A stretch of DNA of 64,000 bases from Alphaproteobacteria bacterium (GCA_017999645.1 JAGNLJ010000007.1:207-64206); one strand, 5' to 3'; positions 10,707-45,163 are shown, counted from the stretch's first letter. Numbers and translations are program-made. Notes: generated by a model from the letters alone, not told the origin.

Positions 10707-10725
10707 AGATTTTATGCCTGGCAGT

Positions 10726-27473: not shown

Positions 27474-27489
27474 GTCTTCCAAAAAGTCA

Positions 27490-27507
27490 CCCCCGCAAAA
27501 GCGGGGG
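27490..27507 (-). other. Intercistronic GC hairpin between the DHS-like gene and aguA
   Basis: CCCCCGC-AAAA-GCGGGGG. On the mRNA strand it is followed by TGACTTTTT, so it may be a partial terminator or stabiliser. Confidence 0.5.
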
Positions 27508-27537
27508 CTTTGTAATATTTATATGCGGTTTGAACGA

Positions 27538-30243: not shown

Positions 30244-31344
30244 ATGACGCTGCGCCTCGAGCTGCCCCGCTGGTACGATCTCCACGCCCATTTCCGGCAA
30301 GGGCCTCTCATGAAGGCGCTGGTTGCCGATCACCTGGCGATGGGCTGCGCGGGCATCCTCGCGATGCCGAACACGAAGCCTCCAGTCTCCAAAGTTAACA
30401 AGAAGGACCCCGGCGAAGGCTGGAGCATCGAGGAATACCTCCAGATGCTGCGCAAGGCGGGCGGCTCGAGATTTACCGACATTATAGTGCCTCTCTATCT
30501 GACGAAGGACACAACGCCTGCCATGATTGAGGCGGGGGCCAGATCAGGCCTTTTGCGCGCTGCAAAATATTACCCCCCGCACGGCACCACCGGGGCCGAG
30601 CAGGGCGCGCCCTTTCAGACCTATATAGACAATGGCGTTTTTAAAGCCATGGAGCAGGCCGGGGTGGTGCTGAATATCCATGGCGAGGAGCACGGGCTGG
30701 ACGCTGTAAAGTACTTCGGCAAGACCAATGCCGAGGAGATCTTTTACAAAGAACGTCTACCTCACGCGGTCGACAAATTCCCTAAGCTCAAAATCGTCGG
30801 TGAGCACATTACCACCCGGGTGGCTGCCGAATTTATCGAGGCCGGGCCCTCTACGTTGGCCGCCACGGTCACTCCGCAGCATCTTATCTATACGGTCGGG
30901 CATTTGCTGAAGGGTCTTAAATACCACCTCTACTGCTTGCCGCTTCTTAAATACGAAGAAGATAGGCTGGCGCTCTGGGCGGAAGTGACGGCTGCCGACA
31001 ACACCAAGTTCTTCGCCGGGACCGACAGCGCCCCGCATGTTAAGAAATTAACGGAATGTGGCTGTGCGGCGGGTTGCTATACCGGCGGCGTCGCGCCGCA
31101 GCTTTACATTCAGGCCTTCGAGAAGGCGGGCATCAATATGGGCAGCGCGGCAGGCGTCCAGATGTTCAAAAAATTCCTGTGCACCAACGGCCCGGCTTTT
31201 TACGGCCTTCCCGTATCGAAAGAGACTTTCGTTCTCGAGAAGGTCGAGACGGAAGTGAAAGTCGGAAAGTCGTGCGTTGTGCCCCTGCCGCTCGGTGCGG
31301 CGGCTGACGGTGAAAAAGCCACACTTCACTGGCGCGTGGCCTAG
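30244..31344 (+). CDS. pyrC: Dihydroorotase (E. coli-type class II)
   Basis: DLHAHFRQG, AMPNTKPPV and FFAGTDSAPH parallel E. coli PyrC motifs. Confidence 0.9.
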   Translation: MTLRLELPRWYDLHAHFRQGPLMKALVADHLAMGCAGILAMPNTKPPVSKVNKKDPGEGWSIEEYLQMLRKAGGSRFTDIIVPLYLTKDTTPAMIEAGARSGLLRAAKYYPPHGTTGAEQGAPFQTYIDNGVFKAMEQAGVVLNIHGEEHGLDAVKYFGKTNAEEIFYKERLPHAVDKFPKLKIVGEHITTRVAAEFIEAGPSTLAATVTPQHLIYTVGHLLKGLKYHLYCLPLLKYEEDRLALWAEVTAADNTKFFAGTDSAPHVKKLTECGCAAGCYTGGVAPQLYIQAFEKAGINMGSAAGVQMFKKFLCTNGPAFYGLPVSKETFVLEKVETEVKVGKSCVVPLPLGAAADGEKATLHWRVA

Positions 31345-34289
31345 CTCGCCATTTTCCGGCTTTCCTGCAGCAATGCCGCGCGTGTCGTTTCGAAAATGGC
31401 CGTCATATCACTGAGCTTTTCCTTGAGCATTTCAGGCGGGCAATTTTCATCGTTGGCGGCCTGTTCCATGTCTTTGGCGAGATCAGAGAGTGTGGCCGCA
31501 CCCATCCTGCGGCTTGCGGATTTAATTGTGTGGGCGGGACGAATAGCGCCCTTGATGATCCCGGTTTCGAGCGCGGTTTTGATTTCCTGCATATAGCTCG
31601 TCACATCCTCAATATAATAGGAGAGGATGGAGGTATATTTATCTTTGAGCACTTCATGCGATTCGATGACGGCGGCGATGTCCAGTACAGCGTTGGTGGA
31701 AACTGTAGACGGCACCGTTATTTCGACATACTCCTCGACGTAAGGAGGGGATGTGCGGCCATTGACCCAGGTAAAGACTTTCTCCCGAAGGTCATTCGTG
31801 CGCACCGGCTTGGAAATGTAATCGTCCATCCCGGCATCCAGACAGCGCTGGCGGTCGCCCTTCATGGCGTTGGCCGTCAGAGCGATGATCGGCAGATCGG
31901 CCCGGATCGACCCGGCTTTTTTGAGATCGCAGATTTTCCGGGTGGCTTCGAACCCGTCCATGAGCGGCATCTGGCAATCCATCAGGACGAGGTCGAAATC
32001 TCCGGTATCAACGGCTTTCAGGGCTTCCTGGCCGTTCGAGGCAATGGTGATGACGCAGCCAAGCTGCTCGAGCACGTCCTGCGCGAAGGCCTGGTTGATA
32101 CGGCTGTCTTCAGCCAGCAGGACTTTAACGCCGTCGAGGCGGACAGGCGATTCCTTGCTGTCCTGCCCGATGCCGTATGTGTCCACCCGGATCAGGCTGT
32201 CGGTTTCGCCGCCTCGATATTTGCTCCAGACAACGGCGAGCGTTTCGATCAGCGCCTGTGTTGTGATGGGTTTGGCGATGTAGGACGAAAAGCCTTTGCG
32301 TGCAAGATTGTCGGAAGTCATGGAAGGCGTTCCCGCCGACGTCAGCATAATAAGGCATGTATTGGCGAAGGCAGGCTCATCATTGATGGCGCGGGCCAGC
32401 ATCTCGCCGTTCATGCCGGGCAGCAGGTAATCGATGATCACCATTTTATACGGGTCACTCATGGCCGCCGCTTCGTGCATCGTCTCAAGCGCTTCTTCAC
32501 CGCTGAAACAGGTAGCGCAACGCATGCCGGCGAATGTGAGCTGCTCGGTCATGAGCGTATGAATAACCAGGAGGTCGTCGACAATCAAAACTTTTACGTC
32601 TTTCAGTACCGGCGGCCGAATGGGTGCCTGGGTTTCCTTGGCGTTGCGCGTGAGCGGCAGGGTGAAGGTGAAGGTCGAGCCTTTGCCCGGCTCGCTCTGT
32701 AGTGTGATTTTACCGCCCATCATTTCAACGAGACGTTTGCAGATCGAAAGCCCGAGTCCCGTGCCCCCGAAATCGCGGGTAGTGGAAGAGTCCGCCTGCA
32801 CGAATTTTTCAAATATCTTCTCATGCGCTTCCGCCGCTATGCCGATGCCGCTGTCTTCTACGCTGAAGACAAGATTGACTTTGTCGGGTTGCGGATTGCT
32901 TTTGTCCTCGCGCACGGAAACGACAACGTAGCCTTTTTCGGTGAATTTGATTGCATTGTTGATAAGATTGCTCAAAGTCTGGCGTACTCGCACAGGGTCG
33001 GCGTAAACAAATTGCTCGCTGCCCGGAACATAACGCACGGCAAGTTCCAGCGCCTTTTCCCGCGCCTTCGGCGCATAAAGTGCGCATGTGTCATCTACAA
33101 CCTGCAGCATGTTGGTCGGGACAGGGTCTAGCACCATTTTGTCCGCCTCGATTCTGGAGAAATCGAGAATGTCTTCGATGATATTCAGCAGCGTTTCGCC
33201 CGAGCTTATGATGGTTTTTGTATAGCCGCGTTGTTCAGGCCCCAGCGGCGTTTGCATCAGAAGTTCCGCCATGCCGAGCACGCCGCTCATGGGGGAACGG
33301 ATTTCGTGGCTCATGGTCGCGAGAAATTCATTCTTCAGCCTGTTGGCTTCTTCGGCGCGGAATTGAGCCTCGCGCAGTTGCTGCATGTTAAAGCTCATCT
33401 GGCGAAGATAATAGGAAGCCAAAAGCGTAAGAACAGAAAGTGCCGAAAATAAAATGTAAGGGTAATAATTATGGTGTGATTCCAGAAAAGGAGTGGTCGG
33501 TAAAAAATTAAGACGAAGTGCCCTGTTTCCATCCAGTTTTATAAAATTGGAAGCATTATAAAAATTGCTGGATACGCCGGGCTCTCTTGTTTCATAAATG
33601 CGCATGGCTTGTTCGTCTGCGTGAACGAGGTCGATGGTAACGTGGTTATAAGGCACCAAGCCGCCTGCGCCGACCGCCATTTCCGCTATTTTGCCAATAT
33701 TAATGATGCCCACGGAGAAACCGAATAATTCGGCATCTTCATTTTTATAAACCGGATGAATTAGAAGAATGTGATTGCTGCCTAGAAAATTATTGTGTTC
33801 ATCATTCCTGAAGACGGAAAGATTATTGAAGAAAGAAACGCGGCTTTTAGAATTCGCCGCCTGCTGGAGCATTGAATTGAATTCTTGGTCTTTGGAAATT
33901 TCAAGTTTATGGTCGCTGTGCGATTTCCATGGGCTGGTGGAAGAGATGGCATAAAGCGGAATATTTTGATCGTTTTCTGACGGCATAACCCAGGCCAGAA
34001 TTTCATAATTCTCGTTACGCTTCAGGAATGGCGATGTAAAAGTATGGAATTCGTCGGGATCAACATATTTTGAAGCTAAAAAATAATTTCCGATATCTTC
34101 AAGCATCTGGATATGCGTAACAACGGCATTTTCTATCAAGGATAAGTTTTTAGCCGAAATTCTTTCGAAGGCTTCCCTGCTATCGGTGCTGGTAGATTTG
34201 TATATCTCAACCGAAAACATCGCCGAGATAATCATCCCTACGAAAAAAACTATAAAATGAAGGTATTTGCCGTGAGAAAGTCGGTGCAT
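31341..34289 (-). CDS. Hybrid sensor histidine kinase (periplasmic sensor-TM-HisKA-HATPase-REC-REC-Hpt)
   Basis: H-box FLATMSHEIRSPMSG and G-box GGTGLGLSICKRLVEMMGG. Two receiver domains (IIDYLLPGMNG and LMDCQMPLMDG). The C-terminal Hpt has PAHTIKSASRRMGA. Confidence 0.9.
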   Translation of the reverse strand: MHRLSHGKYLHFIVFFVGMIISAMFSVEIYKSTSTDSREAFERISAKNLSLIENAVVTHIQMLEDIGNYFLASKYVDPDEFHTFTSPFLKRNENYEILAWVMPSENDQNIPLYAISSTSPWKSHSDHKLEISKDQEFNSMLQQAANSKSRVSFFNNLSVFRNDEHNNFLGSNHILLIHPVYKNEDAELFGFSVGIINIGKIAEMAVGAGGLVPYNHVTIDLVHADEQAMRIYETREPGVSSNFYNASNFIKLDGNRALRLNFLPTTPFLESHHNYYPYILFSALSVLTLLASYYLRQMSFNMQQLREAQFRAEEANRLKNEFLATMSHEIRSPMSGVLGMAELLMQTPLGPEQRGYTKTIISSGETLLNIIEDILDFSRIEADKMVLDPVPTNMLQVVDDTCALYAPKAREKALELAVRYVPGSEQFVYADPVRVRQTLSNLINNAIKFTEKGYVVVSVREDKSNPQPDKVNLVFSVEDSGIGIAAEAHEKIFEKFVQADSSTTRDFGGTGLGLSICKRLVEMMGGKITLQSEPGKGSTFTFTLPLTRNAKETQAPIRPPVLKDVKVLIVDDLLVIHTLMTEQLTFAGMRCATCFSGEEALETMHEAAAMSDPYKMVIIDYLLPGMNGEMLARAINDEPAFANTCLIMLTSAGTPSMTSDNLARKGFSSYIAKPITTQALIETLAVVWSKYRGGETDSLIRVDTYGIGQDSKESPVRLDGVKVLLAEDSRINQAFAQDVLEQLGCVITIASNGQEALKAVDTGDFDLVLMDCQMPLMDGFEATRKICDLKKAGSIRADLPIIALTANAMKGDRQRCLDAGMDDYISKPVRTNDLREKVFTWVNGRTSPPYVEEYVEITVPSTVSTNAVLDIAAVIESHEVLKDKYTSILSYYIEDVTSYMQEIKTALETGIIKGAIRPAHTIKSASRRMGAATLSDLAKDMEQAANDENCPPEMLKEKLSDMTAIFETTRAALLQESRKMAS

Positions 34290-34290
34290 T

Positions 34291-35244
34291 TTACCATTCC
34301 AGTTGCGGGCTGCCGCCGACGAAGGCGATGGCCTGGTTGCCCTGTTGATTGTAGGTCAGCTTGTCGAAGCTGACGGCATTGGCCTGTGCGATGCCGCGCC
34401 CATGGTTGTCCCCCGCGCGCGCCGGCTCAATCGTCATATAACGTTTCCAGTTAAAGCCATTGCCCTGGTCAGTGATGATTGCGTAGAAGCCATCTTCCTT
34501 ACGTGTGATGATGAGTTCAGCCGTGCGGCTTCCGTAGGAATCAAGTTGTTGCCTGCGCTCAATTTCGGCTAGCCACGTACCATTATCCAGCAACTGACTT
34601 TTACGCTCATAGCCAATTTCGAGATTGCCGTGTTCGACGGCATTGGTCAGGAGTTCAGCAAGTCCCAAGAGAACGCGCTCGGGATCGGGAAAGCAATGTG
34701 CTGTGAACGCGGCGAGGCATTCCGCCTCGTTAAGTGTGCGGAAATTGAATTTGCAGGTTCGGATCAGATTGAAGCTGGTGTGATGGCGTTTCAGTTCATC
34801 ACTCAAAGTTCTGTTCTGTTGCGCTTCGCGTGTCGCGGCCAGAAGAACCGAGCGCAACACATCTTCATTCACCGGCTTTGCAAGATAGTAGAACACGCCG
34901 GCCTCAAGCCCTTCCTGCATCTGTTTAACGGTCGAGGCGCCGGTTACCATGATGACAGGGATTTTGCGCAAAGCCGGGTCATCTTTAATCAAACGAACGG
35001 CGCTGAGGCCATCCATGACCGGCATCAGGCGGTCCATCAGAACGACGTCGATGCCGCCCTTCGCGCGGCGCAGGATTTCCAGCGCCTGCTGTCCGTCGGC
35101 GGCCTCTTCCATCATGTGGCCCATCTGCCTGATCTGCTCGCCAAGGAAGGCGCGCTCCAGCCTGTCATCCTCAACGGCGAGAATAGTTAGCGGGCGATCC
35201 TTGGCGCTTAGGAAAGGGATAACGTTTTCGGCAAGTTGTTTCAT
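34291..35244 (-). CDS. Response-regulator receiver fused to an RsbW/SpoIIAB-like ATPase (Ser kinase/anti-sigma-type HATPase)
   Basis: REC domain (ILAVEDD...VLMDRLMPVMDG...K). C-terminal N-box ELLTNAVEHGN, G1 DQGNGF and G2 GRGI. Confidence 0.75.
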   Translation of the reverse strand: MKQLAENVIPFLSAKDRPLTILAVEDDRLERAFLGEQIRQMGHMMEEAADGQQALEILRRAKGGIDVVLMDRLMPVMDGLSAVRLIKDDPALRKIPVIMVTGASTVKQMQEGLEAGVFYYLAKPVNEDVLRSVLLAATREAQQNRTLSDELKRHHTSFNLIRTCKFNFRTLNEAECLAAFTAHCFPDPERVLLGLAELLTNAVEHGNLEIGYERKSQLLDNGTWLAEIERRQQLDSYGSRTAELIITRKEDGFYAIITDQGNGFNWKRYMTIEPARAGDNHGRGIAQANAVSFDKLTYNQQGNQAIAFVGGSPQLEW

Positions 35245-35253: not shown

Positions 35254-36576
35254 TTATCGTTCCGTGAAGGCGGTTTTCATCGCCGTGTGAACCGGCTTGA
35301 GCAGGTATTGCAGGATGGTTTTTTCGCCGGTGATGATTTCTGCCATGGCGGTCATGCCGGGCACGACAAGGTTGCGCTGGTCATGGCCGACGTGGTTTTG
35401 TGAAAGATCGACCCGGCCACGATAATAGCGCTCGCCATTTTCACTGGTAAAAGTCGTAGCCGAGATCTGGTCCAGTTGGCCGGTGATGAAACCGTAGCGT
35501 GAGAAATCGAAGCTGCTGAATTTCACCTGTACCTTCTGGCCGGTTTTCAGGTGGCCGATATGTTGCGGCGGGATTTTTACCTCGACGATCATTTTTTCAT
35601 CCATTGGCACGATTTCCATCAAGGTTTGACCCGGCTGCGCGACGGCACCGACCGTATTGATCGCAAGACCTTTGACGAGGCCGCGAGCGGGAGAGCGGAC
35701 TTCAAGCCTGCCCACGCGGTTCTTCAGTTTTTCGATCAGTTCGGTATTCTGCGCTTTTTCGGCGATGACCTGGTCGATGCGCTCATAGGCATCGTCCTGC
35801 TGGCTGGCACCCAGAGAGCTCAGGCGGTTTTCGAATTCACTGATTTCCGCTCTTGCGCCGCCGATGCGGTTTTTAAGCTGTTTAACTTCGCCGTCGATTT
35901 CATTGAGGCGCTGTTTTGTCTCAAGAAACTGCACGTCTGAGGTATAGCCCTTGCGGTTAAGTTCCGCGCGGCGGTCATACAGGTCTTTCGTAATAGTATA
36001 ATTGCTGCGCGCCGTATCAAGCTCGGCCTGCAAGGCTGAAATCATATTTTTCTTCTGCTTGATCTGTTCCTGGATGATTTTCTGTTCTTCGCTGCGGGCC
36101 TGCACCATGGAATCGAAGAATGATTTCTGATCCTTGATCAGGGCAGCGTCTTTTATCTCCGCATCCGAAAATTTAGGCTCGCGGCTTTCCGCGAAAGCGC
36201 GGAGACGTTCTTCCTGCATGGCAAGGCTGGTTTGCTTGCTGAGGGCGCGGTTCAGGTCATCCTGCGATCCGGCGCCATCGAGAACCATCAGTACCTGACC
36301 TTTCTCGACCTGCTGGCCTTCATGGATCTTGATCTCGCGGACGATGCCACCTTCAAGGTGCTGGACGACCTGCTGGAATCCTTGCGGTACTACTTCGCCC
36401 GGCGTGCGTGCGACTTCGTTGATGTTCGTCACGCCCGCCCACGCGATGAAGGCAAAAATTGCAAGGCTGGTTGTCACCATCGTCAGTTTGATGATGGTGG
36501 GGTTTGCCGCTTCCTCAAGCTGGACAGCCTGGGAAAGATAGCGGGTTTGTTTGTCGTGCGTTTGTGATCTGGTCAT
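35254..36576 (-). CDS. HlyD-family type I secretion membrane-fusion protein
   Basis: N-terminal TM segment, lipoyl-like hairpin (GGIVREIKIHEGQQVEKGQVLMVLD), long coiled coil and beta-barrel C-terminus. AGGAGG lies 7 nt upstream of the ATG at 36576. Confidence 0.9.
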   Translation of the reverse strand: MTRSQTHDKQTRYLSQAVQLEEAANPTIIKLTMVTTSLAIFAFIAWAGVTNINEVARTPGEVVPQGFQQVVQHLEGGIVREIKIHEGQQVEKGQVLMVLDGAGSQDDLNRALSKQTSLAMQEERLRAFAESREPKFSDAEIKDAALIKDQKSFFDSMVQARSEEQKIIQEQIKQKKNMISALQAELDTARSNYTITKDLYDRRAELNRKGYTSDVQFLETKQRLNEIDGEVKQLKNRIGGARAEISEFENRLSSLGASQQDDAYERIDQVIAEKAQNTELIEKLKNRVGRLEVRSPARGLVKGLAINTVGAVAQPGQTLMEIVPMDEKMIVEVKIPPQHIGHLKTGQKVQVKFSSFDFSRYGFITGQLDQISATTFTSENGERYYRGRVDLSQNHVGHDQRNLVVPGMTAMAEIITGEKTILQYLLKPVHTAMKTAFTER

Positions 36577-38756
36577 CACGCGGCCTCCTGTTTGTTTATG
36601 GTTTCTGTAACTGCTTCACGCGCACCGGCCATCGGTGTTTCGCCGCGGCGCAAGACAACAAGCGTGTCTGCAAGATTGATGAAGTCTTCGCGGTAACTGA
36701 TCATAATGCAGGTGCGCTTGCCTTTCGTGTGGGCGAGATAATCCTTGAGATTTTTCCCCGCGCGGCTGCTGAGCAGAGCGTTGGGAAGCTCATCGATAAG
36801 CATAATAGGTGCGCTGTGGAGATAGGCGCGCGCCAGCGAAAGCCGCGTAGCAAGGCTGGAAGGCAGCGCATCGGCACCGTAACGACCGATAATGGTGCCC
36901 AGCCCGGCGGGCATGGCGGCGATCTCGTTCCAGACATCGGCCATCTGTAATGCTTTCTCGATGTCTTCCTGGCTCGCCATCGGATTGCCGAGACGGAGAT
37001 TTTCAAAAATCGTGCCCTGGAAGAAATCGGCCTGCTGCGGGATATAGGCGATCTGGCGCCGAAGGTCCGGCGCATCCAGTTGGCGGATATCGAAGCCGTC
37101 AATCTGCACGGCACCGGAAGTGGTTTTGTACAATCCTTTGATCAGTTTCAGCAAAGTTGTTTTGCCGGAACCGTTCTCACCCGTGACGATGACGAAATCG
37201 CCGGGGCGTGCGTCGAAGGTCAGGTTGTTGAAGACAGGATCGGTGTCTTCACCGTAATTAATTCCGGCGTTTTTAAAACTGACCTGGCCGCGCATTTTCG
37301 GCACGCGCGCAGCGGTGACAGCCTCCATCGCCTCAGTGTCTATATCCATGAGCTTGTTGACCTGCATGATGCTGTTGCGCAGCTGTTCAAGGCGCGGGAT
37401 CATTGTGCACAGGCTGTAGAACGGCATCAGTACGCGCCAGACGAGGATCATTGTTGCGACCAGTGCACCCGTACTCATCATGCCTGCCCAGATCATGTGA
37501 ACTCCGAAGCCGACCGTGGCAACGGCGGCAATCAGTGTAATCGCATGGGCCATCGTCTCCGCCATCATGCCAAGCCAGTTCAGGCGGAAATGTGCAAGCA
37601 TTTCGCGGCCTGAAAGCTCGCGGAACTTGGCCTGCCATGTTTTCGAAAGGCCGTTGCCACGCACGCCCTGGATTTTTTCAAAAGTCTCAATCGCGAATTG
37701 CTGGCGTGCCGAACTGGCTTTTGCAGCGAGACGGATGGTAATTTTCACTTTTTTGTGAATGCCCCACAATAGCAACCCATAACAGGCAACCATCGCCAGC
37801 GGCACAAGAACGAGCGGCCCGGCAACGGCATAAATGGCAAGCGCGGCAATGGCAACAAAGGGAAGTTCCAGCATCGACAGGAACACCGATCCGCTGAAGA
37901 AATCGCGTACGGATTCGAATGTTTTAATACGGGCGATCTGCGCGGCGACGGACGCTCGCTCAATCAGGGAGGGAGGAAGGCCGATCAGGTGGGCAAATAT
38001 TTTATTACTGACAATATTGTCCATGCGCGCGGCAAGCCATGACAGCCCCTGCGAACGGATGCGGCGGAGAACCCATTCGAATCCAATTGCAATGCACGCG
38101 CCGACAGCGAGCATCGGCAGGATTTCAGGCGCACCTGCTGCGATAACGCGGTCGTAAATAAGCATAATGAAAAGCGGCGTCGAAAGCGCAATAACATTCA
38201 GCATGAAGCAGCCCAGCAGAATCTGGCCGAATGTACCGCGGAAGCGGCTCAGCAGGGCAGAGAACCAGCTTTTGCCTGAACCTGCGCGCATAAATTTGGA
38301 AGTGACGACGCGGTTTTCATCGTAGCGCTCGAATATCCACGCTTCGCCGGTTTCAGCCGCCATATGGTCCTTTGATATTTTTTTGATATGGCCGTTGGCG
38401 TAAACTTTAAAATGCCCGCCTTTTTGTTCAAGAATGATAACAGGATGACCGCTGTCGCCGATGAACAGGCAGGGCAGCAGGCGCGGGTCTATATCTCTTA
38501 ATTGTGTTGTCACAGGGCGTGCAAAATAACCGAGATGCGCGAAGGTATTCAACGTCGATTGCTGCGTCATCTTGCCAGGGTCATAAGGCAACGCTTCAAG
38601 AAGACGGTAAGTCCTGCAGCGCGGCTCAAGTGCGAGCAGGAGCACGCAGAGGCCGCTCTCCCATTGATTTTTTTCGATGAAATTGTCACGGCCTGATTGC
38701 TGCAGGACGCCCATCATCTGTGAAACGGGATTTACTTCGGCGGTAGTATCGGTCAT
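36576..38756 (-). CDS. T1SS-type ABC exporter subunit A (N-terminal C39-like domain plus TMD plus NBD)
   Basis: 726 aa. Q-x5-C (NQWESGLC) and a downstream GHPVIIL resemble the C39 Gln/Cys/His arrangement. Walker A GENGSGKTT, Walker B IMLIDE, degenerate signature LPSSLATR, and Tyr in place of the H-loop His (ISYRE). Confidence 0.9.
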   Translation of the reverse strand: MTDTTAEVNPVSQMMGVLQQSGRDNFIEKNQWESGLCVLLLALEPRCRTYRLLEALPYDPGKMTQQSTLNTFAHLGYFARPVTTQLRDIDPRLLPCLFIGDSGHPVIILEQKGGHFKVYANGHIKKISKDHMAAETGEAWIFERYDENRVVTSKFMRAGSGKSWFSALLSRFRGTFGQILLGCFMLNVIALSTPLFIMLIYDRVIAAGAPEILPMLAVGACIAIGFEWVLRRIRSQGLSWLAARMDNIVSNKIFAHLIGLPPSLIERASVAAQIARIKTFESVRDFFSGSVFLSMLELPFVAIAALAIYAVAGPLVLVPLAMVACYGLLLWGIHKKVKITIRLAAKASSARQQFAIETFEKIQGVRGNGLSKTWQAKFRELSGREMLAHFRLNWLGMMAETMAHAITLIAAVATVGFGVHMIWAGMMSTGALVATMILVWRVLMPFYSLCTMIPRLEQLRNSIMQVNKLMDIDTEAMEAVTAARVPKMRGQVSFKNAGINYGEDTDPVFNNLTFDARPGDFVIVTGENGSGKTTLLKLIKGLYKTTSGAVQIDGFDIRQLDAPDLRRQIAYIPQQADFFQGTIFENLRLGNPMASQEDIEKALQMADVWNEIAAMPAGLGTIIGRYGADALPSSLATRLSLARAYLHSAPIMLIDELPNALLSSRAGKNLKDYLAHTKGKRTCIMISYREDFINLADTLVVLRRGETPMAGAREAVTETINKQEAA

Positions 38757-40459
38757 ATGCGGAGCTCCGTGTACGGCTTTACTTGATTGGTGCTGTAGGA
38801 TTCGTCGGTTTCAATCAGCTTGCCGTTTTCAAGGCGGCAGAAGCGCGTTGCCAGTCCACGAATATTGCAATCGTCAGAAACCAGGACCATGCTCGCACGT
38901 CCTTTCAGCCGGGCGAGAAGGCTGTAAACGAGATTGTATCCTTCGCGATCAAGTGCGCGGTCGGCATTGTCGAAAAGGATGATGCGCGGCTTGGGTGCCA
39001 GCACGCGCGTCATGGCGATGCGCTGCTTGAGACCCGGCGGAATACTGTCGGTGTTGGTGCCTGTGAGCAACGTGTCAAAACCAGAAGGCAGGCGGGCGAT
39101 ATCGCGGTCGAGTTTCAGCAGCGCGGCAATTTCCTGTACTTCTTTTTCAGGAATCTGACCGAAGCAGGTCATGTTGTCGCGAATTGTGCCGCGGAAAATC
39201 ACACCTTCGGAACGGATCAAGCCGACATGACGGATCAAATCTTCCGAAGCGTAGCGCAGGATGTTGCGGCCATCGATATTGATAGTGCCTTTTCCGGGCG
39301 GGTAAATACCGGCAAGAAGCTGGAGAAGAAGCGTTTTGCCCGAACCATGCGCGCCGGAAAGCAGGATGCTTTCCCCGCGTTTGAGGTCGAGATCGAGATT
39401 GTCGAGCAACCAGGGCTTGTCGTCGGAATGACGGAAAGAAAGTTTTTCAATTTTGATGGTGCCTTCGCGCACAGAATTTGCATCGTTAGCGGGCGTGCCG
39501 GGATATTGCGGTGTTTCAAAAATCGCCTCGACCTTCTGGCGTGCCAGCGCGTAATCCTGGTACCTAGCCCAGAGGCCCAGCGCGCGTTGAATTGGTTGCA
39601 TCATCCGTCCGGAAAGCAAGATAGTGGCGATCAGCGCGCCTGTCGTGATATGGCCGTGCAAGGCAAACAGCGCCCCGGATACAATGACGGCGGCAACCAT
39701 GATGTGCGAGAAAACAGCGCCAGAATCAAAGGTGCCGGATGTCGCTTTTGTAACGTTGTAATTGGAAAGTGTAGAAGTTTCCTCGAGCTTCTCATAGCGG
39801 CGCGCAAAATTATTCTCCAGCGCGAAGGATTTGATCGTATGAACGCCATCCAGTCCCTCAATCAGGAAGTTATAACGTTCATCGTCCGTTTCATCGCGCT
39901 CTTTCAGTGCACTGCGCAATCTCTGGCCCTGCGCCAGCGAAACAATCGTAAAAACCATCAGCACGGCGCAGGGTACGGCGGCGAGAGGACCCGCGATATA
40001 AATGATAAGGCCGAGAAAAACTGGCACGAAAATCATTTCGAACAAAACCGTCAGCGCATAGCCGTTATAAAAATCCTTCAGCTTGGTCACTGCGCTCATG
40101 CGGTGAAGATGTTCGCCGATGCCGTAAGGGCCGAGGCGCGAAAGATCGGCCTCAAGAACATGATTCATCGCCGAGCAGGAAAGACGGTGTTCGTAAGCCG
40201 CCCCCGCCCAGCCCATGATATAGGCACGGGCCAGGCGCAGGGTCGCTTCCAGGGCAACGGCCAGTCCCACGCCTGTAATCAGGACAGGTAGCGTGCCGGA
40301 GCCGGGGTTGGGAAGGATCCGGTCATAGACCTGAAGGGTCATAACCGGCAGGGCAAGAGAGAGAATGTTGATGGCGAGGGTTGAAAGCAGGAGACTGCCC
40401 GTGCTCACGCTGTAGCCGTCAGGGCGAAGCAAATCTTTGTTGTGTTTGTGCTGGCTCAT
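38753..40459 (-). CDS. T1SS-type ABC exporter subunit B (TMD plus NBD, no peptidase domain, catalytic Glu missing)
   Basis: 568 aa. Walker A GAHGSGKT (39332-39355), signature-like PPGLKQRIAMTRV (39020-39040), Walker B IILFDNAD (38960-38983, Asn where the catalytic Glu is expected) and D-loop ALD. Confidence 0.88.
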   Translation of the reverse strand: MSQHKHNKDLLRPDGYSVSTGSLLLSTLAINILSLALPVMTLQVYDRILPNPGSGTLPVLITGVGLAVALEATLRLARAYIMGWAGAAYEHRLSCSAMNHVLEADLSRLGPYGIGEHLHRMSAVTKLKDFYNGYALTVLFEMIFVPVFLGLIIYIAGPLAAVPCAVLMVFTIVSLAQGQRLRSALKERDETDDERYNFLIEGLDGVHTIKSFALENNFARRYEKLEETSTLSNYNVTKATSGTFDSGAVFSHIMVAAVIVSGALFALHGHITTGALIATILLSGRMMQPIQRALGLWARYQDYALARQKVEAIFETPQYPGTPANDANSVREGTIKIEKLSFRHSDDKPWLLDNLDLDLKRGESILLSGAHGSGKTLLLQLLAGIYPPGKGTINIDGRNILRYASEDLIRHVGLIRSEGVIFRGTIRDNMTCFGQIPEKEVQEIAALLKLDRDIARLPSGFDTLLTGTNTDSIPPGLKQRIAMTRVLAPKPRIILFDNADRALDREGYNLVYSLLARLKGRASMVLVSDDCNIRGLATRFCRLENGKLIETDESYSTNQVKPYTELRI

Positions 40460-42405
40460 CCGAACAGCCCTCCGCCGCCGAATAATCCGCCGCCGCCGTG
40501 GTGATCGTTACCCAGCAGGCTTCCAAGGCCTTCCGCAACATCGCCCACAGGTTCAGGCAGGACGCCGCCAAGCGCATCGCCAAGCCCGCCGCCGATGATG
40601 TCACCGGCATCGGGCAGGATATTTTCCGGCCACGAAAGCGGGCCTTCACCGCCGCCAACGCCACCGGCGATATCGCCAAGGCCGCTGCCGGGCAGGCTGC
40701 CGATCAAATCAAGCGCAGCATCTATATCGAGATCGATATCACCGACAATATCCTCGACGGGATCGAGTTCGATATCAGCCAGATCAATATCAGGCGTATC
40801 AATGCCAAGCGGATCGAGATCTATGTCGAGGGCGATATCGGTATCGCCTGCGCCATTATCGGTTTCATAGTTGCCGAGAAGATCGAGATCAAAATCCGTC
40901 GCAACGCCGCCGTCGTTATCTAGTCCGGGCAGTAAGCCGTCGATAACATCGCCCCCTATATCTTCGAGAAATTCACCCGCTTCAGCGAGAAGACTGTCCT
41001 CGCCTGTGCCGCCAGCAAAATTGTCAACCAAACCGTCGGCTGTATTGCCGAGCAGGTCAGTCGCCACGCCTAGATCGATGTCGATATCGCCGACAATATC
41101 CTCAACCGGGTCGAGACCGATATTGAGTGTCGAATCAAGAAGTCCGTTATCCACGATATCAAGATCGAGGCCGAGATTGAGATCTGTGTCACCAGCACTG
41201 TGGTCCGGAGCGAACAGGCCGAGGCCGATGTCACCGAGTATGTCGACATCGCCGACAATATCCTCAACCGGGTTGAAGACGACATCCACAATGCCGTCGA
41301 TAAAATGCGCGTCACCGAGCAACGGCAATTCAATACCCAGGCCCAGATCCGTATCGCCAGGACGATGATCGTTATTACCATCCAGAATACTCAGAATGGA
41401 ATGCAGATCGACCAGCACAAGATTTTCTGTGCCCAGGATGGGGTCAAGGAGATTTGTAACAGGCGAAAGATCAATCACCTCATTGACAACATTAAAAACG
41501 GAATCGCCCGAGAGAATGTCGAGATCCAGATTCGTGACTTCGCCAAGGATCGTGTCGAGATGAACCGTAAGCCCGTCGCCGCCGAATATATTATTGAAGA
41601 AGTTATTGACGATATTGGTGACGTTATTCGTGATTTCGGTCAGGTTCAGGATATCAACGATATTTGTAATTTCCGTGATGGTCGTCGTGATAAGATTCGT
41701 GACGTCGCCCAGATCGATAATCGTCAGATCGCCAAGATCAATATCTCCAAGCTTGATAATGATGTCTCCAATGTCGATGTCGAGGAAATTGTCGATATCG
41801 ATATTGATGATATTGTGGCCGCCTTCGCCATTTGTTCCGTTAAGGCCGTCCGCGCCGTCGACACCGTTAAAGCCTTCGCCGTCGATTCCGTTAGTCGGTA
41901 TGAAGGGGGTGCCGCCGCCACCATTAAATACAAAACCGGAAGCTGCGAGCGGCAGAACTGTCGAAGCTGTGTAGCCGCCATTGTTACCTGCGCCAATGTC
42001 ACTAAAAGAAGTCGCATCTTCGGCAACATTGCGATCGGTGCTGATATCGTTGTTATTGGAATCGAGCGCGAACGGGCTGCTGGCGTTTGTGAATCCTGCC
42101 GCGAATGAAATCGCCGAGGCAATACCGCCTGAAGCTCCGGGCGCTTCGCCTGTGATAATGAATGGATCGGTGAGGGCCATAGCCTCGTTGGTCTGGCCAG
42201 CCTGCATCATAAGAAAATTCAGGTTACCGGAACCGAACAGGCTCTCGGTGACGCCGTCGAGATCTTCGGCGCTGTACTGATCAGCATCAAGCTTCGTGAC
42301 TGGCACGCTCATCTCAAAATAATCCGTGGCCGCAGATGAATTTTGCGGTTCAAGGCTGAGAGCGAGACCGCCCGAAGAGGGCGAATTGATCGGTGACTTT
42401 TCCAT
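40456..42405 (-). CDS. Hyper-acidic Asp/Gly/Ile/Leu/Asn/Thr repeat protein, presumed cargo of the adjacent exporter
   Basis: 649 aa. AGGAGG lies 8 nt upstream of the ATG, and the stop overlaps the next start (ATGA). About a fifth of residues are Asp/Glu, with only about 6 Lys/Arg and no Cys. It contains 3x GDTD(L/I)xL and 3x PVEDIVGD(I/V)D, and ends GGGGLFGGGGLFG. Confidence 0.8.
   Translation of the reverse strand: MEKSPINSPSSGGLALSLEPQNSSAATDYFEMSVPVTKLDADQYSAEDLDGVTESLFGSGNLNFLMMQAGQTNEAMALTDPFIITGEAPGASGGIASAISFAAGFTNASSPFALDSNNNDISTDRNVAEDATSFSDIGAGNNGGYTASTVLPLAASGFVFNGGGGTPFIPTNGIDGEGFNGVDGADGLNGTNGEGGHNIINIDIDNFLDIDIGDIIIKLGDIDLGDLTIIDLGDVTNLITTTITEITNIVDILNLTEITNNVTNIVNNFFNNIFGGDGLTVHLDTILGEVTNLDLDILSGDSVFNVVNEVIDLSPVTNLLDPILGTENLVLVDLHSILSILDGNNDHRPGDTDLGLGIELPLLGDAHFIDGIVDVVFNPVEDIVGDVDILGDIGLGLFAPDHSAGDTDLNLGLDLDIVDNGLLDSTLNIGLDPVEDIVGDIDIDLGVATDLLGNTADGLVDNFAGGTGEDSLLAEAGEFLEDIGGDVIDGLLPGLDNDGGVATDFDLDLLGNYETDNGAGDTDIALDIDLDPLGIDTPDIDLADIELDPVEDIVGDIDLDIDAALDLIGSLPGSGLGDIAGGVGGGEGPLSWPENILPDAGDIIGGGLGDALGGVLPEPVGDVAEGLGSLLGNDHHGGGGLFGGGGLFG
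40731..41278 (-). repeat. Three roughly 35-bp near-identical coding repeats (PVEDIVGDIDI units)
   Basis: GTCGA(T/C)ATCGCCGACAATATCCTCAACCGGGT occurs at 41080-41115 and 41242-41278. The variant GATATCACCGACAATATCCTCGACGGGAT lies at 40731-40770. Confidence 0.85.
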
Positions 42406-42593: not shown

Positions 42594-44006
42594 ATGGGTA
42601 TTCAGAACCGCCAATCCGGGGGAAATAACGTGCGCCGCTTCATATTTTTTTGCCTGCCATTTCTTATTTACGGGATCCCGCCAGCCATAGCGGAGGATTC
42701 GTCTCAGTCCGGGAACGCTACGCTCGAGCAGGTGCTCAGGCATGTCTATGTGAACAGCCCGGAACTTGAGGCGTCTCGTGCTGAATTACGGGCTTTGCAT
42801 GAACTTCATCCGCAGGCGCTGGCAGGTTGGAAACCGACAGCTGAAGTGGAAACCAGTGTCTATGCTACCGATATCGATAGTAGCAATTTTGCGAATGCCG
42901 ACGGCGCAACCACCAAGGACATTAATGTCAGCATCAACCAGCCTTTATATCGCGGCGGTAAGACGACGGCGGAAACGGAACGGTCTTACAGTCTTATCAA
43001 AGCAGGCTATGCGCGGTTTTTACAAAAAGAGCAGGAGGTTTTCCTGCGCGCGACGACAGCGTATATGGATGTTCTGCGCGACCGCACATTATTGAATCTG
43101 CGCATTAACAATGAAAAAATCCTGGGCGAAGAACTGGCGGCTGTGCGCGAACGTCATAACGCCGGCGATGTCACGCAAACCGATGTGCGGCAGGCCGAAG
43201 CTCGTCTTGCGCGTGCACGGGCCGAGCATGTCGCGGCCTCCGGGCAGCTGGAAAGCAGCCGCGCAGCGTTTGAGGCAATCACAGGCTTTGCGCCGAATGA
43301 AACATTATATGTACCCGGCACGTCGTTCCAGTTCCCGTCGGTCATCGAAGAAATGGTCAGCCGCGCCGAAACGGAAAACCCGGCGCTTGCCATATCTGTG
43401 AACCAGCATGAAGCCGCCCAGAATGATATCGACGCGCGTTTCAGCGAATTGCTGCCGCAGGTCTCGGCATTTGCTTCCTACAACAAGCAATTCGATCCCC
43501 AGCCGGGCGTGATTGATGAATCCGAAACGAAAACGATCGGTGTGCGTGCCAAGATTCCACTCTATGAGGCCGGCTTTGTCCGTTCGCGGGTGCGCGAAGC
43601 CAAAAGCATCGCCAGCCAGCGCAACCAGGAAGTGAATGAACAACGCCGCCTGATCCGGAGAGACATAACCGATAACTGGAAAACACTGGAATCGGCGCGT
43701 GCAGAGATCGCGGCGCGGAACGCGGAGACCGATGCTGCGCGCGCGGCGCTGGAAGGCGTGCGCGAGGAAGCGAAAATGGGTGAGCGCACGGTCCTCGATG
43801 TTCTGGACGCCGATCAGGATGTCCTGAGCGCCGAGGCGGCGCTGGCCCGCGCGCATCATGACGAGGTCATCGCATCCTATGCTCTGGCGGCGGCGATTGG
43901 CTGGTTGCTACCTGAAAAAATGGGCATGGCAGACATTGCGTACCAGCCCGGGCCGCATTACCGCGCGATGAGCAGGAAAATATTCAGCATGAACGCGGAA
44001 AAGTAA
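42594..44006 (+). CDS. tolC: TolC-family outer-membrane channel
   Basis: 470 aa with a signal peptide. Tandem TolC repeats are present, with LEQVLRHVYVNSPELEASRAEL and a second ...AEIAARNAETDAARAALEGVREE. Confidence 0.9.
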   Translation: MGIQNRQSGGNNVRRFIFFCLPFLIYGIPPAIAEDSSQSGNATLEQVLRHVYVNSPELEASRAELRALHELHPQALAGWKPTAEVETSVYATDIDSSNFANADGATTKDINVSINQPLYRGGKTTAETERSYSLIKAGYARFLQKEQEVFLRATTAYMDVLRDRTLLNLRINNEKILGEELAAVRERHNAGDVTQTDVRQAEARLARARAEHVAASGQLESSRAAFEAITGFAPNETLYVPGTSFQFPSVIEEMVSRAETENPALAISVNQHEAAQNDIDARFSELLPQVSAFASYNKQFDPQPGVIDESETKTIGVRAKIPLYEAGFVRSRVREAKSIASQRNQEVNEQRRLIRRDITDNWKTLESARAEIAARNAETDAARAALEGVREEAKMGERTVLDVLDADQDVLSAEAALARAHHDEVIASYALAAAIGWLLPEKMGMADIAYQPGPHYRAMSRKIFSMNAEK

Positions 44007-44082
44007 GGTTTCCGGCCTTTTCAAGGGCTTTTGTCGGCAGGAAAACTCGTTTAGAATCGTCTAATTCATGGAGGCGATTTAT

Positions 44083-45150
44083 ATGACAAGGTTATTGGCA
44101 GTTCTTGCGCTTTTTGCATTGTTGAGTGGGGCGCAGGCTCAGGCAGAAGCCCCGACGCTCGAACAGATCCGTGCCGACCTCAACCTCCAGCTTCGGACCG
44201 ATAACCCGCCCGCACCCATTGAGATTCTGAACGTTTCTTATGATCCTACGCGCGAGCTTTATACCGATTATAATGCAGCCTTCAAAAAATTCTGGAAAGA
44301 AAAATCCGGGCAGGACGTCGAGATCAAGCAATCGCATGGCGGCTCCGGCAAGCAGGCGAGGGCTGTTATATCCGGATTGAAAGCGGATGTCGTCACGCTC
44401 GCGCTGGCTTATGACATCGACAGGATTGCGGTCGAGAAGAAAGACAGCATGCCCGCAAACTGGCAGGCAAGACTGCCGAACAACAGCGCGCCTTATACTT
44501 CGACGATTGTGTTCCTGGTGCGTAAGGGTAATCCGAAGAACATTAAAGACTGGGGCGATCTCGTGAAAGATGATGTCCAGATTGTTACTCCTAACCCGAA
44601 AACCTCGGGCGGTGCGCGGTGGAATTACCTCGCGGCATGGGCCTATGCCGAAAAAGCTTTCGGCGGCGATGAGGCGAAAGTGAAGGAATTTGTCGGCAAG
44701 CTGTTTAAAAACGTGCCGGTTCTCGACTCCGGCGCTCGTGGTTCCACCATGACCTTTGTACAGCGCAATATCGGCGATGTTCTGCTGGCATGGGAAAATG
44801 AAGCGTTTCTGGCAATCAATGAACTCGGTCCCGATAAATTTGAGATCGTCATGCCCTCTATCAGCATCCTGGCCGAGCCTCCTGTCGCAATGGTCGATGG
44901 CAACGCCATTAACAAAAACGCAATAGAGGTTGCCCGCTTTTATCTCAGCTATCTTTATTCAAAAGAAGGGCAGGAGCTGGTGGCGAAGCATTATTTCCGT
45001 CCCGTAGATCCCGTAGTCATGGCAACTAAACGTGAAATGTTCCCGGAAATTGAAATGGTGACAATCGACAAGGATTTCGGCGGCTGGGCGGAAACGCAGA
45101 AAATCCATTTCGATGACGGCGCTATATTCGACCAGATCTACAAACCGTAA
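44083..45150 (+). CDS. cysP: Sulfate/thiosulfate ABC transporter substrate-binding protein
   Basis: [23 protein letters not shown]...[24 protein letters not shown] matches the Sbp/CysP family. GGAGG lies 8 nt upstream of the ATG at 44083. Confidence 0.9.
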
Positions 45151-45163
45151 ACGGATTTAAATA

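Follow-up and report, generated by a model that had tools for sequence, protein, structure and literature searches.

Asymmetric ATP sites are well known in drug pumps; does the same lopsidedness occur in a type I protein-secretion pump? The question is raised by a locus in an Alphaproteobacteria bacterium (GCA_017999645.1 JAGNLJ010000007.1:207-64206; the window, that is, the whole stretch of 64,000 nucleotides analysed), in which two overlapping genes encode unlike ABC exporter subunits, here called A and B. A preliminary description of the sequence had predicted that the two form an obligate asymmetric heterodimer with different, complementary motif defects. Gene overlap and synteny, natural fusions, reciprocal motif conservation and the canonical motifs of the paired transporters RtxB/RtxE and NHLP all support this prediction. 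We therefore consider it quite probable that A and B are unlike halves of one T1SS ABC exporter, an obligate heterodimer with one conserved and one degenerate ATP site.

Two divergent ABC subunits in a conserved secretion operon

ORF calling and translation returned both genes on the minus strand as previously described, and the earlier motif positions were right to within 2 nt (Table 1). Each subunit combines Pfam ABC_membrane and ABC_tran, that is, a type I exporter TMD with a C-terminal nucleotide-binding domain (NBD), and matches the HlyB sequence (7SGR/8DCK) with E values of 2e-62 (A) and 2e-54 (B). The best structural matches of the AF2 model of A were HlyB 8DCK and PCAT1. TIGR03375 (LssB) was the best NCBIfam model for both subunits, with 457 bits over the full length for A and 336 bits for B against a cutoff of 693. 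Because neither reached the cutoff of a curated NCBIfam T1SS ABC model (TIGR03375, TIGR01846, TIGR01842), A and B appear to represent a divergent branch outside the curated T1SS subfamilies. With an identity of only 24% to each other, they are likely ancient paralogues and not the product of a recent duplication.

Table 1 Features of the locus (coordinates from the first nucleotide of the window)
Feature	Coordinates	Strand	Basis or remark
Hybrid sensor histidine kinase (HisKA, HATPase_c, two REC domains, Hpt)	31341..34289	-	Pfam + NCBIfam
Response-regulator receiver + RsbW-like HATPase_c_2 fusion	34291..35244	-	Pfam
HlyD-family membrane fusion protein (MFP, periplasmic adaptor)	35254..36579	-	TIGR01843
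Subunit A, 726-aa ABC exporter: N-terminal C39-like domain + TMD + NBD	36576..38756	-	
A H-loop position MISYRE, Tyr688 where His expected	36687..36704	-	
A Walker B IMLIDE + D-loop position LPNALL	36771..36806	-	Walker B itself 36789-36806
A signature position LPSSLATR	36843..36866	-	LPSSL aligned to LSGGQ
A Q-loop IPQQAD, Gln574	37026..37043	-	alignment
A Walker A GENGSGKTT	37155..37181	-	alignment; canonical
A C39-like domain, residues ~10-150	38307..38729	-	AF2 model, Foldseek
Subunit B, 568-aa half-size ABC exporter: TMD + NBD, without N-terminal domain	38753..40459	-	
B H-loop position VLVSDD, without His	38870..38887	-	alignment
B Walker B + D-loop IILFDNADRALD	38948..38983	-	IILFDNAD at 38960-38983
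B signature region IPPGLKQRIAMTRV	39002..39043	-	IPPGL aligned to LSGGQ
B Q-loop position IRSEG, Ser417 for Gln	39203..39217	-	alignment; variable among homologues
B Walker A GAHGSGKTL	39329..39355	-	intact in window, variable among homologues
Presumed substrate, 649-aa very acidic repeat protein	40456..42405	-	translation, adjacency, co-conservation
TolC-like outer membrane factor	42594..44006	+	Pfam OEP PF02321, E 7e-55

The partners of a T1SS ABC component, a HlyD adaptor and a TolC-like factor, are both present and both kept in related loci. The MFP, encoded directly after A, scored 382 bits with TIGR01843 (cutoff 209 bits), and the TolC-like gene, which is divergent from the operon, has a similarly placed, divergent homologue in 18 related loci. 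The gene for the REC/HATPase_c_2 protein (Response_reg, E 4e-24; HATPase_c_2, 27.4 bits, exactly at the cutoff) is a conserved operon member that follows the MFP in most loci, including those from Desulfobulbaceae, and a homologue of the hybrid sensor histidine kinase also lies downstream in many related loci.

Overlaps of 4 nt occur at all three junctions (substrate candidate/B, B/A and A/MFP): the last 4 nt of the substrate gene overlap the B start, the B/A overlap reads ATGA, which would be consistent with translational coupling of the two subunits, and the MFP starts with a GTG overlapping the stop codon of A. Wherever enough sequence was available, the 41 related loci keep the order B-A-MFP; they span at least four classes, with loci from Micavibrio-like Alphaproteobacteria, Desulfobulbaceae, Rickettsiaceae, Paracaedibacteraceae and one gammaproteobacterium. 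The adjacent genes for the unlike half-transporters, as expected of a heterodimer, co-occur in all informative loci. An uninterrupted B reading frame was recovered from about 40 loci in different classes as well as from hundreds of metagenomic clusters (43-95% identity). In Azospirillum sp. B510 and A. oryzae, a B-like half, a C39-like domain (CLD) and an A-like half are encoded by a single CDS, followed by HlyD. At least 15 named species or strains of Azospirillum, and Magnetococcales as well, have this B-CLD-A fusion, and two-NBD proteins of about 1300 aa account for about 30 of the best 150 representatives of 50%-identity clusters.

The acidic protein encoded upstream of B combines a conserved N-module (KLDADQYxAEDLDGVTESLFGSGN...) with a conserved C-terminal end (...AEGLG...GGLFG), and it matched no Pfam or NCBIfam family. 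In about 28 loci, the gene directly preceding B encodes a homologue with both motifs, and the order substrate-B-A-HlyD holds among the related loci wherever contigs extend far enough. By adjacency and co-conservation, this GGLFG-terminated repeat protein is the presumed exported substrate.

Motif deviations in the two nucleotide-binding domains

Motifs were assigned using HMMER alignments to solved ABC exporters (ABCB1-type, ABCB4 and HlyB 8DCK) and checked in a MAFFT alignment with V. vulnificus RtxB/RtxE. Residues were counted in 121 sequences per subunit (the query and 120 database homologues), complemented by about 40 genome loci. Both alignments upheld the earlier motif assignments, apart from the near-canonical reading of the B signature.

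In A, this applies to Walker A, the Walker B Glu, LPSSL in place of LSGGQ, the missing D-loop Asp and the H-loop Tyr. Four Walker A residues are invariant (G526, G529, G531 and K532, each 121/121), and Tyr501 of the A-loop is shared by 119 sequences. The canonical Walker B pair Asp655-Glu656 is similarly well kept, with D655 in all 121 and the catalytic Glu656 in 111. The D-loop position reads PNALL, without Asp, while the H-loop Tyr is found in 117/121 sequences and is replaced by Asp, His, Glu, Thr or Gln in distant loci. The signature of A varies among homologues, with an entropy (1.52 bits) above the NBD mean. LPSSL by itself is weak evidence of a defect, because the wider clade as a whole has a non-LSGGQ signature, LPxG[VIL], even where Glu and His are canonical.

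In ABC ATPases generally, the Walker A Ser/Thr and the Q-loop Gln coordinate Mg, and the A subunit in the window has canonical ligands at both positions (Thr533 and Gln574). Across homologues, the Q-loop residue (Q in 67/121, K in 50/121) co-varies with the Walker A Ser/Thr: in about 42 of the 121 sequences, Ser/Thr is replaced by Ala and Gln by Lys/Arg, both together, and in exactly these lineages the P-loop of B stays canonical. From this joint loss, a departure from standard Mg-ATP chemistry seems possible in one subclade or more.

The signature of B had been described as near-canonical, which does not hold: IPPGL aligns to LSGGQ, lacks the Ser and the first Gly and keeps only the second Gly, and the only canonical-looking part of the region is the helix that follows (KQRIAMTR). 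IPPGL is itself nearly invariant (P474 99/121, P475 116/121, G476 and L477 121/121; entropy 0.37 bits). The alignments agreed with the preliminary description on the remaining B motifs. Walker B carries Asp497-Asn498, with Asn for the catalytic Glu in 104/121 sequences; among the B sequences of the loci together with the query (41 in all), 40 read FDNAD and one (L038) IDNAD, so that all of them have Asn. The D-loop RALD is canonical (L503 and D504, each 121/121), and the residue in place of the H-loop His is Ser528 or Asp529, according to the alignment used (S528 111/121, D529 99/121, D530 121/121). At the Walker A Lys position, 75 of the 121 sequences have K, 35 have L and 11 have something else, so that Lys is lost in 46; loci L002, L012, L014, L020, L036 and L037 carry a destroyed motif. 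Three features are absent from the preliminary description: Ser417 in place of the Q-loop Gln of B, His344 at its aromatic A-loop position (R, Y, H or F among homologues) and an asymmetry of the X-loop side, which is invariant in B and variable in A.

Reciprocal conservation of A and B

Conservation of the two NBDs is reciprocal. Walker A has an entropy of 0.77 bits in A versus 1.93 bits in B, and the signature one of 0.37 bits in B versus 1.52 bits in A, with NBD means of 1.23 bits (A) and 1.27 bits (B). The motif deviations recur as conserved traits among the 120 homologues retrieved for either subunit and across about 40 loci, and chance is not at issue. Nor does B appear to be decaying, because FDNAD is nearly constant in the loci and its TMD (0.99 bits) is as conserved as that of A.

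A C39-like domain on A only

Subunit A alone carries a C39-like domain; B has none. The AF2 model of the domain (pLDDT 86) shows the C39 fold, with Foldseek matches to the C39-like domain 3B79 (E 3.6e-6), PCAT1 PEP, LahT150, ComA PEP and the HlyB CLD 3ZUA (E 4e-6 to 9e-4, TM ~0.5-0.6). For this domain, a PDB sequence search gave no match and Pfam Peptidase_C39 was not detected. Cys37 is present in 120/121 sequences and Cys47 is also conserved, while Gln31 is found in 10/121 and His104, which was equated with the catalytic His by secondary structure alone, in 3/121; the strand start offers no further conserved His in the 121 sequences. The Q-x5-C motif and downstream His noted earlier are thus present in the query, but their combination is restricted to three family members, the query and two relatives at least 93% identical to it. 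The Gln-Cys-His catalytic set of Peptidase C39 and PCAT is not maintained in the domain of A, which is not a conserved peptidase because only the Cys of this set is conserved.

A predicted heterodimer with unequal ATP sites

From natural fusions and reciprocal conservation, we infer a physical 1:1 B-A heterodimer. It would carry a single C39-like domain, supplied by A and presumably used for docking, and would work with the adjoining HlyD adaptor and the divergently encoded TolC-like channel to export the acidic GGLFG-terminated protein encoded immediately upstream. As read from the sequence, site 1 is composed of Tyr501, Walker A, Gln574, the Walker B Asp-Glu and Tyr688 of A together with the signature IPPGL, the X-loop side and the D-loop ALD of B. 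Site 2 comprises Walker A, Ser417, Asp-Asn and the Ser/Asp H-loop of B together with LPSSL and the Asp-less D-loop of A. Site 1, which selection appears to hold nearly constant, would hydrolyse ATP and drive the cycle; we put this as a prediction because its H-loop residue is Tyr and the opposing signature IPPGL. HlyB H662 is termed the linchpin of hydrolysis in the title of a reference cited in PMC7756269, and H-loop Gln or Asn substitutions in MRP1 NBD2 preserve transport (reviewed in PMC7756269). Site 2 would be unable to hydrolyse ATP by the standard mechanism and may, in this organism, still bind it as structural 'glue'. Some sister lineages lack the B P-loop, which suggests that nucleotide binding at site 2 is dispensable there.

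Three other readings have to be weighed. The heterodimer might form with neither site acting as a conventional ATPase, serving instead as an ATP-binding or very slow switch or being otherwise driven or regulated, for example by the REC/RsbW-like kinase protein of the operon. Such a switch would fit the Tyr and IPPGL of site 1, the exchange of both Mg ligands in about a third of A homologues (~42/121) with a canonical B P-loop in exactly those lineages, and the conserved REC+HATPase_c_2 gene. We nevertheless regard it as unlikely: without catalysis, there would be little reason for A to retain its catalytic Glu in 111/121 sequences and an essentially invariant P-loop Lys and A-loop Tyr, and the A in the window has canonical Mg ligands. 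Moreover, related fused transporters pair an LPxG signature with canonical Glu and His, suggesting that this signature is compatible with activity, and MRP1 NBD2 tolerates Gln or Asn in its H-loop (PMC7756269).

Separate homodimers, with A2 as the real exporter and B2 as an inert or regulatory paralogue, possibly at other positions of a HlyB/D-like (ABC dimer)3-(HlyD)6 assembly, seem very unlikely. A does have its own complete Walker A and Walker B, and mixed populations are conceivable since HlyB/D assemblies hold three ABC dimers (PDB 7SGR, 8DCK). An A2 dimer, however, would place the signature of A opposite its own conserved P-loop, yet this signature is more variable than the NBD mean (1.52 vs 1.23 bits), and B2 would set the invariant B signature against a repeatedly destroyed P-loop. 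In the natural B-CLD-A fusions, the two halves are bound to pair 1:1 within one molecule, and A and B co-occur strictly, with overlapping genes. A view of B as a functionless relic, a duplicate whose motif losses reflect neutral decay and no adapted asymmetric site, would account for its variable Walker A, Q-loop and A-loop positions; we consider this highly improbable given its intact ORF across classes and metagenomes and a TMD, signature, X-loop side, FDNAD and D-loop conserved as much as or more than their A counterparts.

Comparison with known systems

A literature search of incomplete coverage found no paper on a lopsided two-subunit T1SS ABC pair, in agreement with the earlier statement that such a heterodimer is not known to have been described for HlyB-type systems. 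Heterodimeric exporters with one degenerate site (type I / type IV fold) include TM287/288, TmrAB, BmrCD, LmrCD, PatAB, TAP1/2 and MsRv1273c/72c. A and B match them in fold (models) and sequence, in having unlike half-transporters side by side, in one NBD that lacks both the catalytic Glu and the H-loop His, and in a non-consensus signature of the partner NBD (here LPSSL) facing the degenerate site. The likeness to TM287/288 proposed in the preliminary description is thus borne out for one conserved plus one degenerate site, but not for a fully consensus site: these exporters have a fully canonical one (LSGGQ, His), whereas site 1 here has the Glu together with Tyr688 and IPPGL, both conserved. 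They are also small-molecule or peptide exporters that, unlike A/B, have no HlyD or TolC partners and no C39-like domain. The degenerate site keeps ATP bound in examples such as ABCC1 (review PMC7756269), whereas the degenerate P-loop of the A/B family has been lost outright in several lineages.

Two different ABC proteins are also needed in the MARTX T1SS of Vibrio (RtxB, RtxD, RtxE, TolC), for which a heterodimer has been proposed (PMC3034196, PMC4316617). Both pairs belong to the LssB-like branch. All motifs of V. vulnificus RtxB and RtxE are canonical, unlike those of A/B; their lengths (701 and 722 aa) suggest an N-terminal extension on both, in contrast to A only here; the gene order is rtxB-rtxD-rtxE instead of B-A-MFP; and the exported protein is an RTX toxin, accompanied by rtxC and rtxH. 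Orthology to RtxB/RtxE was rejected, as the identities of A and of B to RtxB and to RtxE all fall at 25.6-26.6% and the gene order differs. NHLP/Nif11 bacteriocin export (TIGR03796 peptidase-ABC, TIGR03797 ABC, TIGR03794 HlyD) likewise pairs a C39-bearing with a C39-less ABC paralogue, and fused two-NBD versions exist there too. Identity with this system was also rejected (A, 221 vs 853 bits for TIGR03796; B, 192 vs 709 bits for TIGR03797). Two fused C39-bearing transporters, one of them annotated NHLP, have LSGGQ/FSGGQ, Asp-Glu and SALD in both halves. An H-loop His was seen twice in one of these proteins; the other was covered at this position in a single half, which has it too. NHLP substrates are leader-peptide bacteriocins, whereas the presumed one here is a large acidic protein. 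Because RtxB/RtxE and NHLP ABC1/ABC2 are canonical, the asymmetry of A/B is distinctive among paired T1SS ABC proteins.

HlyB/LssB-type systems share with A/B the TMD+NBD architecture and the HlyD and TolC partners, and, with A, a C39-fold domain at the N-terminus, not a conserved peptidase in either case. The HlyB homodimer has two CLDs and two canonical sites, compared with one CLD in the B-A pair, and HlyB has lost the catalytic Cys, replaced by Tyr, whereas A conserves the Cys but not the His. The B-CLD-A fusions of Azospirillum (e.g. WP_148219661, 1363 aa) and Magnetococcales combine the two paralogue types in the order seen here, with HlyD after them; their signatures are of the LPxG type as well, and their identity to B and A is 31-33%. 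Unlike A/B, the Azospirillum fusion has a Walker B Glu in both halves and a His H-loop and SRLD D-loop in its A-like half. Its divergent neighbour, which we assume to be its substrate, is a giant Ig-like protein and not a GGLFG acidic protein.

An operon with two dissimilar ABC exporters

The ABC proteins B and A are encoded in a compact operon of six minus-strand genes in the window, of which genes 1–4 are joined at each junction by a 4-nt overlap (ATGA or GTGA). The type I secretion system (T1SS) model LssB (TIGR03375) was the best match for both A (457 bits) and B (336 bits), each well under the cutoff of 693. The nearest genome belongs to an uncultured alphaproteobacterium (95% identity in B), and the relatives are mainly Micavibrio-like metagenome-assembled genomes.

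Features of the secretion operon, its surroundings in the window, and coordinate-bearing related loci
Sequence	Feature	Position	Strand	Details
Window	Very acidic repeat protein, presumed substrate	40456-42405	-	649 aa
Window	ABC protein B	38753-40459	-	568 aa
Window	ABC protein A	36576-38756	-	726 aa
Window	C39-like domain of A	38307-38729	-	
Window	HlyD-family adaptor	35254-36579	-	TIGR01843, 382 bits (cutoff 209)
Window	Receiver domain fused to RsbW-like HATPase_c_2 domain	34291-35244	-	
Window	Hybrid histidine kinase	31341-34289	-	
Window	TolC-like gene	42594-44006	+	Divergent from operon
Window	Polyamine-type flank	26442-29797	-	Agmatine deiminase-like PAD_porph; deoxyhypusine/homospermidine synthase-like; Orn/DAP/Arg decarboxylase
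Window	Binding-protein-dependent ABC importer	44068-47903	+	SBP_bac_11, two permeases, TOBE-domain ATPase
L045 (Azospirillum sp. B510 pAB510c)	Fusion CDS	7048-11139		~1360 aa
L047 (A. oryzae)	Fusion CDS	6105-10169		~1360 aa
L038 (Paracaedibacteraceae)	A homologue in two pieces	2140-5309		Pieces ~1.2 kb apart

Homologues of the receiver/RsbW-like gene and the hybrid histidine kinase gene stand directly 3' of the T1SS genes in most related loci, even in the distant Desulfobulbaceae. The surroundings of the two genes showed no partner of the STAS or anti-sigma-antagonist type. The polyamine-type and importer flanks look ordinary.

Motif content of A and B

Motifs were assigned from HMMER alignments to solved exporters and an alignment with RtxB and RtxE of V. 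vulnificus. The preliminary description had proposed complementary defects in the ATPase motifs of the two proteins; almost all of its assignments were borne out, with coordinates correct to within 2 nt. A retains Walker A (GENGSGKT), the Walker B Asp-Glu pair and the Q-loop Gln (Gln574), and has LPSSL at the LSGGQ position, PNALL at the SALD position of the D-loop and Tyr688 in place of the H-loop His. In B, a GAHGSGKT Walker A and a normal ALD D-loop accompany Asp-Asn in Walker B and Ser or Asp where the H-loop His is expected. The B signature had been taken as near-canonical, which it is not, since IPPGL matches LSGGQ at the second Gly only. B also deviates in its Q-loop (Gln replaced by Ser417) and its A-loop (Tyr replaced by His344). 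The original observation was confirmed in part.

Reciprocal conservation of the two ATP sites

We compared 120 database homologues per protein and 41 related genome loci with the query. The asymmetric motif pattern proved to be a family trait, with conservation that is reciprocal between A and B. Site 1, which would be formed by the Walker motifs, A-loop, Q-loop and H-loop of A with the signature, X-loop side and D-loop of B, is near-invariant: in A, the A-loop Tyr occurs in 119/121 sequences, the P-loop Gly, Gly, Gly and Lys in 121/121 each, the Walker B Asp in 121/121 and its Glu in 111/121, and the H-loop Tyr in 117/121, while the xPPGL signature of B has an entropy of 0.37 bits and its X-loop side and D-loop Leu-Asp are kept in 121/121. 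Site 2, which would comprise the Walker side of B and the signature of A, is drifting instead. Walker A of B reaches 1.93 bits, lacks its Lys in 46/121 sequences and is scrambled over the entire P-loop in several loci; the Q-loop and A-loop positions of B vary, as do the A signature (1.52 bits) and its surroundings. For comparison, mean nucleotide-binding domain (NBD) entropies are 1.23 and 1.27 bits, and the transmembrane domain of B has 0.99 bits. In B, Walker B has the FDNAD form in 40 of 41 sequences (loci plus query); the one exception is the Paracaedibacteraceae locus L038, with IDNAD. These two features place B as a whole under strong selection despite its drifting site 2 elements.

A near-invariant site 1 and a drifting site 2 are the pattern that a B-A heterodimer predicts. 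Were the proteins to work as A2 or B2 homodimers, the opposite of this reciprocal conservation would be expected, and we consider both improbable.

Gene order and natural fusions

The order substrate, B, A, adaptor is kept in each locus with enough sequence, the order-bearing loci coming from Micavibrio-like Alphaproteobacteria, Desulfobulbaceae, Rickettsiaceae, Paracaedibacteraceae and one gammaproteobacterium. In Azospirillum, a plasmid search revealed one protein of 1363 aa, with HlyD encoded after it; its N-terminal half resembles B (31% identity) and its C-terminal half, including a C39-like domain, resembles A (33%). The same fusion recurs across Azospirillum, in at least 15 species or strains, and also in Magnetococcales, and two-NBD proteins of ~1300 aa account for about 30 of the best 150 50%-identity cluster representatives of B. 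As gene fusion is classic evidence for two parts working as one unit, these B-like and A-like fusions indicate that B and A act as one unit. The core of the earlier heterodimer interpretation thus stands on reciprocal conservation, kept gene order and fusions, with its details corrected: B and A probably form an obligate heterodimer in which site 2 is catalytically dead. That site 1 is a normal ATPase is moderately favoured, and with less certainty than the heterodimer, given its Tyr H-loop and IPPGL signature.

The two tabulated Azospirillum fusions run from a B-like half through the C39-like domain to an A-like half, with HlyD next, and adjoin a divergent giant Ig-like protein of >5000 aa. 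They carry the Walker B Glu in both halves and the signatures LPRGA and LSPSL. A metagenomic A homologue (P0197, 1220 aa) is apparently fused to the HlyD adaptor; this and the split A homologue of L038 may each be a genuine variant or an artefact of assembly or of a frameshift.

A single C39-like domain and a presumed acidic substrate family

The first ~150 residues of A gave nothing meaningful in a PDB search for similarity to solved C39 domains, and Pfam Peptidase_C39 was not detected in them. The fold was therefore established by modelling the domain with AF2 (pLDDT 86); Foldseek matches to the model at E 4e-6 to 9e-4 included V. parahaemolyticus 3B79, the peptidase domains of PCAT1 and ComA, LahT150 and the C39-like domain (CLD) of HlyB. 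The Q-x5-C motif and downstream His noted before are present in the query (Gln31-x5-Cys37, His104), but only Cys37 is conserved (120/121); Gln31 occurs in 10/121 and His104 in 3/121 sequences, and a relative with 94% identity has Arg at 104. The domain, of which there is one per transporter, is most plausibly a docking domain without peptidase function, a role that we infer from adjacency and co-conservation. Residues 32–47 of A also hold a Cys-rich motif, W-E-x-C-L-C-A-L-V-L-x-L-E-P-x-C, with Cys35 in 87/121, Cys37 as counted above and Cys47 in 118/121 sequences; the query has Gly at 35, and the catalytic His is absent.

Adjacency and co-conservation likewise point to the acidic repeat protein as the substrate. 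Members of its family have 488–1123 aa, 10–20% Asp and ~1% Lys+Arg. They share a ~45-aa module (KLDADQYxAEDLDGVTESLFGSGNhxYxxLQAxQT) ~30 residues from the N-terminus and a conserved C-terminal end (PDPxGTVAEGLGxL...GGLFG-stop), and no Pfam or NCBIfam family matched even at permissive thresholds. PVEDIVGD[IV]D is repeated three times in the window copy, which also has a short Gly-X-Y stretch. Homologues lie 5' of B in loci L001–L025, L033, L037 and L041.

Comparison with known systems

There is continuing debate on how T1SS ABC proteins thread an unfolded protein with their paired ATP sites and paired C39-like domains. Since the well-studied cases (HlyB, PrtD, PCAT1) are to our knowledge all symmetric homodimers, genetics cannot tell apart what each half contributes. 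The B-A family is a natural asymmetric version: of its ATP sites one is conserved and the other degenerate, and it has a single docking domain. Split and fused forms are both known, and the second P-loop is gone altogether from some lineages. For specialists in ABC transporters and T1SS, the family is therefore a natural secretion ABC with one site and one CLD, in which one can ask directly whether protein export needs more than one ATP site and one C39-like domain. It occurs widely among Micavibrio-like predatory Alphaproteobacteria and Desulfobulbaceae, accompanied by its uncharacterised, highly acidic family of presumed substrates.

NHLP ABC1/ABC2 is a known two-ABC secretion system. We rejected membership of A and B there, as they are not orthologous to the NHLP pair and as signatures, Walker B Glu and D-loops are canonical in each half of two fused transporters that contain C39 domains, one of them annotated as NHLP family. 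In the MARTX system, a heterodimer of RtxB and RtxE has been proposed for two-ABC secretion (PMC3034196, PMC4316617); this assignment was likewise rejected, since A and B are not orthologous to RtxB/RtxE and neither NBD of the V. vulnificus pair departs from the canonical motifs. Exporters that are heterodimers with one degenerate site, such as TM287/288, TmrAB and TAP, are well known (review PMC7756269), and ATP stays bound at that site in the examples which the review covers, such as ABCC1. None of these is a HlyD/TolC protein-secretion system, and TM287/288-type heterodimers have a canonical consensus site, unlike site 1 here with its Tyr H-loop and IPPGL. In agreement with the preliminary description, no degenerate-site heterodimeric T1SS ABC was found in the literature searched, which yielded only the MARTX work, papers on heterodimers in general and a review that mentions TmrAB briefly; a candidate paper on a Bacteroides secretion toolkit proved irrelevant. 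As coverage was incomplete, this is absence of evidence.

Mg-ligand positions and signature ancestry

The Walker A Ser/Thr and the Q-loop Gln generally coordinate Mg in ABC ATPases. The corresponding positions 533 and 574 of A co-vary almost perfectly: 66 of the 121 sequences carry Ser/Thr with Gln and ~42 carry Ala with Lys/Arg, in counts that ignore kinship (observed at L003, L004, L007–L010, L013, L015, L016 and L021). In a Micavibrio subclade, site 1 carries Ala and Lys at both Mg-coordinating positions. In Ala+Lys lineages B always has a canonical GxHGxGK[ST] P-loop, whereas destroyed B P-loops occur only where A has Ser/Thr and Gln.

This co-change is the basis for a bolder reading, which we consider improbable: an unrecognised class of T1SS machine, marked by a heterodimeric or fused LPxG ABC with just one C39-like domain, by a new family of acidic substrates ending in GGLFG, by a dedicated REC/RsbW-like regulator and by energy coupling off the standard two-site Mg-ATP cycle, one site being dispensable even for nucleotide binding. 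If true, it would mean that nucleotides are handled without dependence on Mg, or that the power stroke which translocates the protein comes from a single site or from binding.

The best 150 cluster representatives of B (P0241–P0390) reveal a large T1SS-like ABC clade with LPxG[VIL] as the B-type and LPxx[FL] as the A-type signature. Both types hold even in members with the catalytic Glu, H-loop His and Q-loop Gln in both halves; many members of the LPxG[VIL] clade are otherwise canonical at these three residues, and B-like singletons with canonical motifs are present as well. The non-LSGGQ signature would thus be ancestral in the clade; it is probably compatible with activity and, on this comparison, is by itself no sign of a dead site. 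As alignment states that imply neither order nor direction, the window subclade differs in B by E to N, H to S/D, a lost Q and a relaxed P-loop, and in A by H to Y and loss of the D-loop Asp. The A H-loop position is occupied by Asp, His or Glu in distant members such as Desulfobulbaceae. Several of the cluster representatives carry extra N- or C-terminal extensions, with lengths of 700–1050 aa.
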